Part shown: positions 7,831 through 10,622 of the stretch, piece after piece
How the letters are laid out: every line of letters begins with the position of its first letter
How positions within the stretch are numbered: the first letter of the stretch is position 1
Origin: a virus
Virus genome (UHGV): UHGV-0118722
Direction: 5' to 3' (one strand)
Length of the DNA: 10,622 nt
Notes under the pieces: generated by a model
Database searches by the model: none
Seen by the model: only the letters and a program-made list of their open reading frames with translations
Told to the model about the DNA's origin: nothing
Translations under genes and position numbers: made by a program

Positions 7831-7991
7831 CCTGTGCGAGATTTATTACGTAACTTCTGCGGATTTGCTGAGTAACAGGGAAAATCCGATACAACGGGTT
7901 AATGAACGAGTCGCCATGCGTAACTATGACGTTGAAATGCCACAGTCGCTCTCCTTTATGCAAAGTAACTTCTCAACCGGTCATTTGTTGC
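7831..7991 (-). promoter_or_regulatory. 160-bp intergenic region upstream of the operon; possible internal promoter or operator
   Basis: Non-coding gap between two minus-strand genes. It contains the 7-bp inverted repeat CGGATTT-N15-AAATCCG at 7860-7888. No promoter hexamers could be assigned confidently by eye. Confidence 0.3.
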
Positions 7992-8273
7992 TTAAGAGGC
8001 ATTTCTATTGAGGTACGAATCGATAATCCTTTGTAACTTTTCAAGAATGAGCCTGTTATTGATGCTGCAAATAATAGTCACGCAATTCTGAAGACTTTCA
8101 TCCATACCCTTATATTCCGCGAAATACATGCCTATAAAGCCTGCAAGTACGGCAGCAATACACTCGGCCATCAATTGCCTGCATGACGCTTCGTAACGTT
8201 TTTCACGAACCCCATTCAGAAACGAATGCACCCCGCCAAGGATGGAGAGGAGCATTATTGTGAAATCAAACAT
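7992..8273 (-). CDS. Small two-helix membrane protein (93 aa), holin-like
   Basis: GAGGAAA ribosome-binding site 7 nt upstream of the ATG (8271-8273). Two hydrophobic segments (FTIMLLSILGGVHSF and IAAVLAGFIGMYFA). It is the first minus-strand gene after the divergent region next to the invertase. In P1 the lyd holin genes head the darA operon, so it may be LydA-like, but I do not recognise the sequence. Confidence 0.6.
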   Translation of the reverse strand: MFDFTIMLLSILGGVHSFLNGVREKRYEASCRQLMAECIAAVLAGFIGMYFAEYKGMDESLQNCVTIICSINNRLILEKLQRIIDSYLNRNAS

Positions 8274-8400
8274 AACTATTTCCTCAATAGTGAATTAAAT
8301 CTCATTGGGAAACGGTATGTACTTTGTGATTTCCACACATACTGGTTTTTGTTAATTAAAATCAGCAGCTTGCTATAAATAACGATAGTGAGCAGAAAAT
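8274..8400. promoter_or_regulatory. Divergent intergenic region between the holin-like gene and the invertase
   Basis: 127-bp AT-rich spacer between divergently oriented genes. It contains an imperfect palindrome GTATGTACTTTGTGATTTCCACACATAC (8315-8342), the palindrome TTAATTAA (8352-8359), and TTGCTATAAATAACGATAG just upstream of the invertase ATG. Confidence 0.35.
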
Positions 8401-8961
8401 ATGCTAATAGGCTATGTACGCGTATCAACAAATGAACAAAACACTGCTTTACAACGAAATGCCCTTGAAAGCGCAGGATGTGAGCTAATTTTTGAGGACA
8501 AGGCGAGCGGCAAAAAGGCTGAACGCCCTGGGTTAAAAAAGGTTCTTCGTATGCTTTCCAGAGGTGACACCCTGGTCGTATGGAAGTTAGATCGTCTTGG
8601 GCGCAGCATGCGTCACTTAGTTGTGCTGGTGGAAGAGCTGCGTGACAGAGGCATTAACTTCCGGAGTCTCACTGACTCCATCGACACCAGTACACCAATG
8701 GGGCGCTTTTTCTTTCACGTAATGGGGGCGCTGGCAGAAATGGAACGTGAACTTATTGTTGAACGTACACGCGCTGGACTTGATGCAGCTCGCGCAGAAG
8801 GTCGAATAGGTGGGCGTCGGCCTAAATACCAGAAAGAAACATGGCAGCAAATGCGGCGATTGCTGGAGAAGGGCATCCCCCGTAAGCAGGTTGCAATCAT
8901 CTATGATGTGGCTGTTTCCACTCTTTATAAGAAGTTTCCGGCGTCATCATTTCAATCCTAA
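8401..8961 (+). CDS. cin: Serine DNA invertase of the Hin/Gin/Cin/Pin family (186 aa)
   Basis: N-terminus [22 protein letters not shown] with the catalytic Ser in VRVST, the conserved ...[12 protein letters not shown]...[14 protein letters not shown]...[19 protein letters not shown]... core, and a C-terminal helix-turn-helix ...[20 protein letters not shown]. It closely resembles Gin and Pin as I recall them. I use the symbol cin because of the P1-like context, but pin or gin is equally possible. Confidence 0.93.
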
Positions 8962-8978
8962 ACCTTGGTTTAAGAGAA
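8953..8978. other. 26-bp crossover site for the serine invertase (hix/gix/cix-like)
   Basis: CAATCCTAAACC-TT-GGTTTAAGAGAA has palindromic inner arms AAACC/GGTTT around a central dinucleotide at 8965-8966, the same architecture as hixL (TTCTTGAAAACC-AA-GGTTTTTGATAA). The invertase stop codon (8959-8961) lies in the left half-site. Confidence 0.75.
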
Positions 8979-10004
8979 CTCGGTACCAGCGGTGAAAAGA
9001 TCCCCCTGTTGAGCACGGCTAACACATGGAGTGCACGCCAGACTTTCAACGGCGGGATCACCGGGGCGCTGACAGGGAACGCCGATACCGCAACGAAATT
9101 GAAAACAGCCAGAAACATTAATGGCGTCAGGTTCGATGGTTCTGGTGACATTAATATCAATACTCTGGTATCGCGCGGTCGCGTAACGGCCCTGGAGGCG
9201 AATGCACAGGGAACATCCGGGATTCAGCTGTATGAGGCATACAACAATGGCTACCCTTCCCCCTATGGCAATGTGCTTCACCTTAAAGGTGCCACCGCTG
9301 CTGGCGAAGGTGAGTTATTCATTGGCTGGAGTGGCACGAGCGGTGCCCATGCGCCCGTACATATCCGTTCGCGGCGGGATACTGATTCTGCCAACTGGTC
9401 TGAATGGGCGCAGGTCTATACGTCAAAAGATTCAATTCCCGGCGTCAATGCCAAAGGGGATCAGGATACCTCTGGTAATGCGGCTACAGCGACCAAGTTG
9501 CAGACAGCATGTACTATCAACGGCGTCTCGTTTGACGGTTCTAAAAATATTGAGCTAACGGCGGAAGATTTAAATCTACAGGAAACGGTAAACAAGGCTG
9601 ATAACGCGGTTCAAAAGACAGGCGATATCTTGTCCGGTGGACTTACTTTTGAAAACGACTCAATCCTTGCCTGGATTCGGAATACTGACTGGGCGAAGGT
9701 TGGTTTTAAAAATGATGCCGACAGCGATACTGATTCATACATGTGGTTTGAAACAGGCGACAACGGCAATGAATATTTCAAATGGAGAAGTCGCCAGAGC
9801 ACCACAACAAAAGACCTGATGAATCTTAAATGGGATGCTTTGTCTGTCCTTGTTAAAGCCCTTTTCAGCAGTGAAGTAAAAATATCGACACTCAATGCAC
9901 TAAGGATATTTAATTCATCTTTTGGTGCTATTTTTCGTCGTTCTGAAGAATGCCTGCATATCATCCCTACACGAGAGAATGAGGGGGAAAATGGGCTTTG
10001 TTGA
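8967..10004 (+). CDS. Tail-fibre variable C-terminal cassette, promoterless and truncated at its 3' end by an IS element
   Basis: The frame is open from 8931 through the crossover site with no upstream gene in frame, so no start codon is expected; the ORF-track start at 9009 is a TTG. It contains repeated tail-fibre motifs [28 protein letters not shown] and [28 protein letters not shown]. Native sequence ends at 9993; the last three codons and the stop (10002-10004) belong to the IS terminal repeat. Confidence 0.75.
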
Positions 10005-10622
10005 ATAAATCAGATTTCGGGTAAGTCTCCCCCGTAGCGGGTTGTGTTTTCAGGCAATACGCACGCTTTCAGGCATACCTGCTTTCGTCATTTTGTTCAG
10101 CGCTCGTACCAGGGCCATAGCCTCTGCAACCTGACCATCGTAGTCACGCAGTGTCAGTGAACCTCCGAACAGCTGTTTTACCCGGTACATCGCCGTTTCC
10201 GCTATCGAGCGACGGTTATAATCTGTTGTCCATTTCCACCGCGCATTACTCCCGGTCAGCCGCTGATTCGCAACAGCACGGTTACGGTCTGCATATTCAC
10301 CGGGCCAGTAACCCGCGCCTTTTCGGGGCGGGATAAGCGCGCTGATTTTCTTACGCCGCAGTTCATCGTGACAGAGCCGGGTGTCGTAAGCGCCGTCTGC
10401 CGATGCTGCCCTGATTTTTCTGTGAGTCTGCCGGATAAGACCCGGGAAGGCTTCTGAGTCCGTCACATTGTTCAGCGACAGGTCTGCACAGATGATTTCA
10501 TGTGTTTTGCTGTCAACTGCCAGATGCAACTTTCGCCATATACGACGGCGTTCTTTGCCGTGTTTTTTGACTTTCCATTCGCCTTCACCAAAGACCTTCA
10601 GCCCGGTGGAATCAATCACCAG
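9994..10622 (-). mobile_element. IS903/IS102-group (IS5-family) insertion sequence, partial (continues beyond the window)
   Basis: The terminal sequence GGCTTTGTTGAATAAATC at 9994-10011 matches the IS903 inverted repeat as I remember it. The sequence just inside differs from IS903 itself, so this is a relative. It contains a transposase ORF on the minus strand. Confidence 0.8.
10050..10622 (-). CDS. IS5-family (IS903-group) transposase, C-terminal part (N-terminus lies right of the window)
   Basis: The minus-strand frame is open to the window edge and ends ...RDYDGQVAEAMALVRALNKMTKAGMPESVRIA, with ...ADGAYDTRLCHDEL... upstream, typical of IS903-group transposases. The track's start at 10619 is an internal Met. 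Confidence 0.85.
   Translation of the reverse strand: MVIDSTGLKVFGEGEWKVKKHGKERRRIWRKLHLAVDSKTHEIICADLSLNNVTDSEAFPGLIRQTHRKIRAASADGAYDTRLCHDELRRKKISALIPPRKGAGYWPGEYADRNRAVANQRLTGSNARWKWTTDYNRRSIAETAMYRVKQLFGGSLTLRDYDGQVAEAMALVRALNKMTKAGMPESVRIA

Follow-up and report, generated by a model that had tools for sequence, protein, structure and literature searches.

The serine DNA invertases Cin, Gin and Hin are known from published work to act through an invertasome, in which two 26-bp crossover sites in inverted orientation are brought together with a Fis-bound enhancer, Ser9 of the enzyme cuts the DNA, and strand exchange proceeds by rotation. The Hin/hix system of Salmonella, Pin of the e14 element and Min of plasmid p15B belong to the same family and share the invertasome mechanism, the 26-bp sites and exchange at a 2-bp center. 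The arrangement of gene and site varies within the family: hin sits inside its own invertible segment, and Pin, like Gin, has its site on the 5' side of the gene. In bacteriophage Mu, the enhancer likewise lies in the 5' part of gin and is Fis-dependent. The Cin/cix inversion of phage P1, reportedly described by Hiestand-Nauer and Iida in 1983, is a textbook inversion switch that is annotated base by base in the GenBank records of P1 and P7.

In this work, we analyzed a stretch of 10,622 nucleotides from the virus genome UHGV-0118722, referred to below as the window. Its right part is almost certainly one end of an invertible C segment, the end with cin and cixL, belonging to a P1-type (Punavirus) plasmid prophage (Table 1). 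The gene order, ddrB-ddrA-darA-hdf-...-lydC-cin-Sv, is that of P1, and positions 7957-9577 align to P1 without gaps at 98.6% identity. When positions 8300-9100 were compared with phage records by megablast, the best match was P1 (98.2% over 8302-9100, with cin annotated beneath), followed by P7, D6, RCS47 and further P1-like phages. The P7 record carries the same features, namely cin, enhancer, cixL, crossover point and Cin-binding region, at corresponding coordinates.

Table 1. Features of the cin-cixL region. P1 coordinates are those of record AF234172, which maps onto the window with an ungapped offset of 23259.
Feature	Window position	Strand	P1 position	Remarks
Predicted sigma-70 promoter P2cin	8279-8305	+	31538-31564	Transferred from the P1 annotation
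Predicted sigma-70 promoter P1cin	8330-8362	+	31589-31621	Transferred from the P1 annotation
cin, serine DNA invertase gene	8401-8961	+	31660-32220	ORF of 186 aa; ATG start; TAA stop at 8959-8961
Cin catalytic residue				Ser9, within the motif YVRVSTNEQ
Recombinational enhancer (sis) inside cin	8419-8490		31678-31749	cin nt 19-90; P1 label "enhancer of Cin-mediated C-segment inversion"
Cin-binding region (protein_bind)	8952-8982		32211-32241	Extent as annotated in P1
cixL, 26-bp Cin crossover site	8953-8978			Base-for-base the cixL of P1 and P7
cixL as annotated in P1	8956-8975		32215-32234
cixL outer half	8953-8964			cin codons 185-186 (CAA TCC = Q S) and stop
Central TT of cixL	8965-8966		Crossover between 32224/32225	Strand-exchange point (between window 8965/8966) and left boundary of the invertible C segment, by P1 annotation; same place in P7
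cixL inner half	8967-8978			Encodes GLRE in the tail-fibre frame
Tail-fibre variable arm (S C-terminal module) of the C segment	8966-9993	+		Silent in this orientation; IS-truncated
One copy of the 612-bp internal inverted repeat	8966-9577
IS903B (IS5 family), left part	9994-10622	-		Transposase ORF runs off the window

The protein encoded by the invertase gene contains an N-terminal Resolvase domain (Pfam, 4e-51) and a C-terminal HTH_7 domain (1.9e-18). It is identical to P1 Cin at 185 of its 186 residues, the sole change being E145K, and differs from P7 Cin at four positions. Where the initial annotation had reasoned by analogy with Hin, Gin and Cin, the gene, judged by its sequence, is the cin of P1 itself, beyond a mere analogy. 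Codon 145 (window 8833-8835) lies in the linker before the helix-turn-helix domain and specifies K here and E in both P1 and P7. The allele with K145 is very common, the exact protein being present in 3101 index blocks of public assemblies. The solved structures closest to this protein are those of Gin (3uj3 and 4m6f). Mu Gin is 78% identical, and its alignment with Cin stops at residue 181.

The crossover site has the sequence CAATCCTAAACC-TT-GGTTTAAGAGAA and, together with its flanks, is identical in a three-way alignment of the window, P1 and P7. When its half-sites are read as a dyad, 8 of 12 positions agree, and the core TAAACC NN GGTTTA forms a perfect palindrome. Both the 26-mer and this core occur once in the window as exact copies. 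The initial annotation had placed the invertase stop codon in the left half of the site and had proposed that the last residues of the recombinase are encoded by the DNA it binds, and the comparison with P1 bears out both points. The part of cin inside the site is limited to Q185 and S186 plus the TAA stop. In a functional sense, the tight tie between gene and site suggested there would thus involve two non-conserved C-terminal codons and the stop. The spacing of 4 nt given there between the stop and the exchange dinucleotide holds when counted from 8961 to 8965; as a spacing, it is 3 bases (8962-8964). The residues encoded within cixL belong to the non-conserved C-terminal tail of Cin, since the Gin alignment ends at residue 181. 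Because the frame of gene S crosses the site, its right half codes for tail-fibre residues; the last codons of Cin, in a different frame, occupy its left half. This overlap was correctly observed in the initial annotation but is already known, as gene and site are arranged exactly as they are in P1 and P7, and the overlap as such offers nothing new. The locus matters mainly for annotation, in which the labels to be used are cin for the gene, cixL for the site and 8419-8490 for the enhancer.

The last of these labels refers to the predicted Fis-dependent enhancer of Cin-mediated inversion, whose presence at this position, as in P1, is supported by sequence comparison. Of its 72 bases, 70 are those of P1; the other two are synonymous substitutions that also occur in P7. 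An enhancer in the 5' part of the invertase gene had been expected from the outset and is located there by transfer of the P1 annotation; the interval suggested for a search for Fis sites, 8450-8600, overlaps it in part, but the annotated element starts further left. A single strict match to the Fis consensus lies within the enhancer, at 8471-8485, and the homologue of the second conserved block, at 8422-8436, lacks the terminal C. The strict pattern is not discriminating, with 77 matches in the window (7.25 per kb), which is why the placement of the enhancer relies on the P1 annotation. Alignment of cin with Mu gin revealed two conserved blocks, GTATCAACAAATGA and GCAGGATGTGA; these blocks also encode conserved residues, so their conservation does not constitute independent evidence. 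The two predicted cin promoters are likewise annotation transfers, and a simple consensus scan of the stretch that contains them returned no promoter on the + strand. An Rfam search of the sequence gave no hits at the gathering threshold, and an inverted-repeat search found nothing relevant.

If the system operates as described for P1, Cin dimers would bind two 26-bp cix sites in inverted orientation and, together with host Fis on the enhancer in the 5' part of cin, would assemble an invertasome on supercoiled DNA. Ser9 would then cut the DNA at the central dinucleotide with a 2-bp stagger, one pair of subunits would rotate, and the ends would be rejoined. The resulting inversion of a segment of about 4.3 kb would swap Sv-U or Sv'-U' (a tail-fibre module with its chaperone) onto the constant part Sc of gene S, and this swap would change the host range. 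Cin inversion is summarized in PMC12529663 and bioRxiv 10.1101/2022.07.24.501295, which cite Hiestand-Nauer and Iida 1983 (EMBO J 2:1733). Inversion would never alter cin, because the exchange point lies 3' of the stop codon and cixL and cixR have the same inner half-site.

The partner site had been predicted to lie to the right of cixL, past the IS insertion and outside the window. In agreement with this, no second cix-like site was found in the window even at 6 mismatches, and in relatives the partner lies where it was expected. An inverted cixR was found in each of the eight Cin-encoding loci with sufficient sequence on the right (P1, P7, L004, L005, L006, L008, L009 and L010), at 1.9-4.6 kb to the right of cixL. 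In these eight loci, cixR reads TTCTC(T/C)TAAACCAAGGTATTGGATAA, also written TTCTC(T/C)TAAACC AA GGTATTGGATAA; its inner half-site exactly matches the inner half of cixL of the same locus, and its outer half-site differs. We infer that cixR of the present element lies about 5.4 kb to the right of cixL, that is, about 3.7 kb past the end of the window. This estimate is the sum of the 4296-bp segment of L005 and L010 and an IS903B copy, which we take to be 1057 bp long with a target duplication of 9 bp; the total of about 5.36 kb to the right of 8965 would correspond to an extended window coordinate of about 14.3 kb. In two of these relatives, L008 and L010, one and the same 4296-bp segment (99.7% identity from end to end) faces opposite ways between the same pair of sites, and both states of the segment therefore exist in nature. 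RecA-mediated recombination between the 612-bp repeats, instead of Cin, could also have produced these opposite orientations.

The window covers just the first 1029 bases of the C segment, which form one arm in frame with cixL. The tail-fibre frame is open from 8931 to 10004, through the crossover site; it is identical to the P1 S protein at the Sc/Sv junction and contains a Gp34_trimer domain (Pfam). The 1029 bases that follow the crossover match the L008 segment at 100% identity when the far end of the latter is reversed, the L005 and L010 segments at 99.4% (near end), and the segment of the P1 reference at 98.6% (far end). The arm departs from P1 after segment position 898 and there matches other P1-like plasmids. 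Since the arm on the cin side here is the far-end arm in P1, the C segment is oriented opposite to the P1 reference. Homology to P1-type DNA ends at 9994, where an IS903B element has inserted at segment position 1029 and cuts the silent arm at about codon 343. Its terminal repeat, GGCTTTGTTGAATAAATCAG, begins at about 9994; the element encodes a DDE_Tnp_1 domain (Pfam) and is 99.5-100% identical to annotated IS903B copies. Inversion would fuse Sc to the IS-truncated arm, and one of the two orientations should therefore give defective fibres. The tail-fibre arm on the cin side is best described as a silent module, disrupted by IS903B, in a P1-like plasmid prophage that is undergoing decay.

Taken against the described systems, the locus resembles P1 in the position of the stop codon within the site, the crossover dinucleotide, cixL, the 612-bp internal inverted repeat, and the placement of lydC upstream and of a tail-fibre arm downstream of cin. 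It differs from P1 in the reversed C segment, the IS903B insertion, and the deletion of lydA and part of lydB. With P7, it shares the gene-site overlap and the place of the enhancer in cin, besides an identical cixL; in contrast, the tail-fibre arms of P7 differ, with 82-93% identity over parts only. Mu also uses its invertase to switch tail-fibre S/U modules, but gin reads away from the G segment, whose boundary, gixR, precedes the start codon of gin by 67 bp, and the C-terminal tail of Gin has no alignment to the last five residues of Cin.

Upstream of cin, on the - strand, lie ddrB, ddrA, darA, hdf and lydC, which are 98% identical to P1 except for a 651-bp deletion in the lydB/lydA region. 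At the junction 7957-7958, the 651 bp of P1 (L001 5005-5655) are missing. Most of lydB is lost with them, as are the complete lydA (holin) and a portion of the -10 element in the late promoter LPdar, while hdf and lydC are retained. The loss suggests a lysis-defective prophage. Of the 465 complete E. coli genomes that contain matching DNA by megablast, not one covers this junction, so the deletion looks private to the source. For both this junction and the Sv/IS903B junction, exact patterns gave no matches in genome, viral and metagenome contig collections, and no covering record was found by megablast among complete E. coli genomes and plasmids; likewise, none of the ten contigs listed with the exact Cin protein has IS903B at segment position 1029. 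Further left, positions 1-1537 of the window are 99.3% identical to a 5.1-kb ColE1-like mobilizable plasmid (the mbeD region of pRHB31-C01_4). This small-plasmid DNA meets P1-type DNA at about 1537-1541, which suggests a cointegrate or an insertion of the small plasmid into a P1-like element.

Such signs of decay bear on whether inversion is still available to this element. Possibly, though on balance improbably, cin and cixL survive here as a relic, inversion having been abolished by IS-mediated loss of cixR or of the remaining tail-fibre operon. This reading draws on the IS903B copy inside the segment, the private 651-bp deletion that removed lydA along with parts of lydB and of the LPdar -10 element, and the small mobilizable-plasmid DNA that makes up the left 1.5 kb of the window. 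It also has a precedent in L003, a 202-kb plasmid (positions 10553-14100) in which an identical cin and cixL run straight into IS26-type transposase genes and no partner site was found within 10 kb; that plasmid is an example of an orphaned cin-cixL. However, cin is intact in the window and represents a common allele present on thousands of contigs, cixL and the enhancer are also intact, and the 1029 bases to the right of the crossover are fully identical to a relative with a complete segment. Moreover, the presence of an IS within the segment is not in itself a barrier to inversion. The preferred interpretation remains that of one end of a P1-type C segment whose partner probably lies beyond the inserted element, and no observation speaks against this identification.

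A different proposal gives the overlap itself a regulatory role: Cin bound to cixL would form a roadblock, reducing read-through into the silent arm, which is in sense orientation, or it would feed back on cin expression. A promoter/terminator scan found no terminator-like structure between the cin stop and the tail-fibre frame, and the silent arm lies on the cin strand with a frame open across cixL; both observations are compatible with such a role. In Mu, the equivalent site sits on the promoter side of gin, so that other members of the family also show some form of coupling between site and gene. On the other hand, just two codons are involved, both non-conserved in Gin, and simple compaction, with a site in the tail-fibre frame lying beside a gene, would give the same result. 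We consider the regulatory role unlikely. A broader version, in which the overlap is functional through a Cin roadblock at cixL and inversion of this IS903B-disrupted copy toggles between an intact and a truncated tail fibre, is similarly doubtful; if true, inversion would be an on/off switch for infectious particles and not a host-range switch.

That cixL is merely a chance palindrome at a stop codon has in its favor only that short palindromes are common, and it was rejected as practically impossible, since the site equals, base for base, the cixL annotated in P1 and P7, none of 200 shuffled sequences matched at up to 3 mismatches, the inner half-site recurs exactly in the inverted partner of relatives, and the stretch bounded by the two sites occurs in both orientations there.

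One additional locus departs from the P1-type arrangement described above. In L007 (positions 14329-15008), a contig of 475 kb whose cin and cixL are identical to those of the window, the closest inverted partner resembles gix/pix sites and reads TTCTCGTAAACCGAGGTTTTAGATAA. This site adjoins a second invertase gene, encoding 199 aa, which is followed by P2-like tail genes. Such an arrangement could have arisen when the inversion systems of two prophages recombined with each other, or it could be an assembly chimera.
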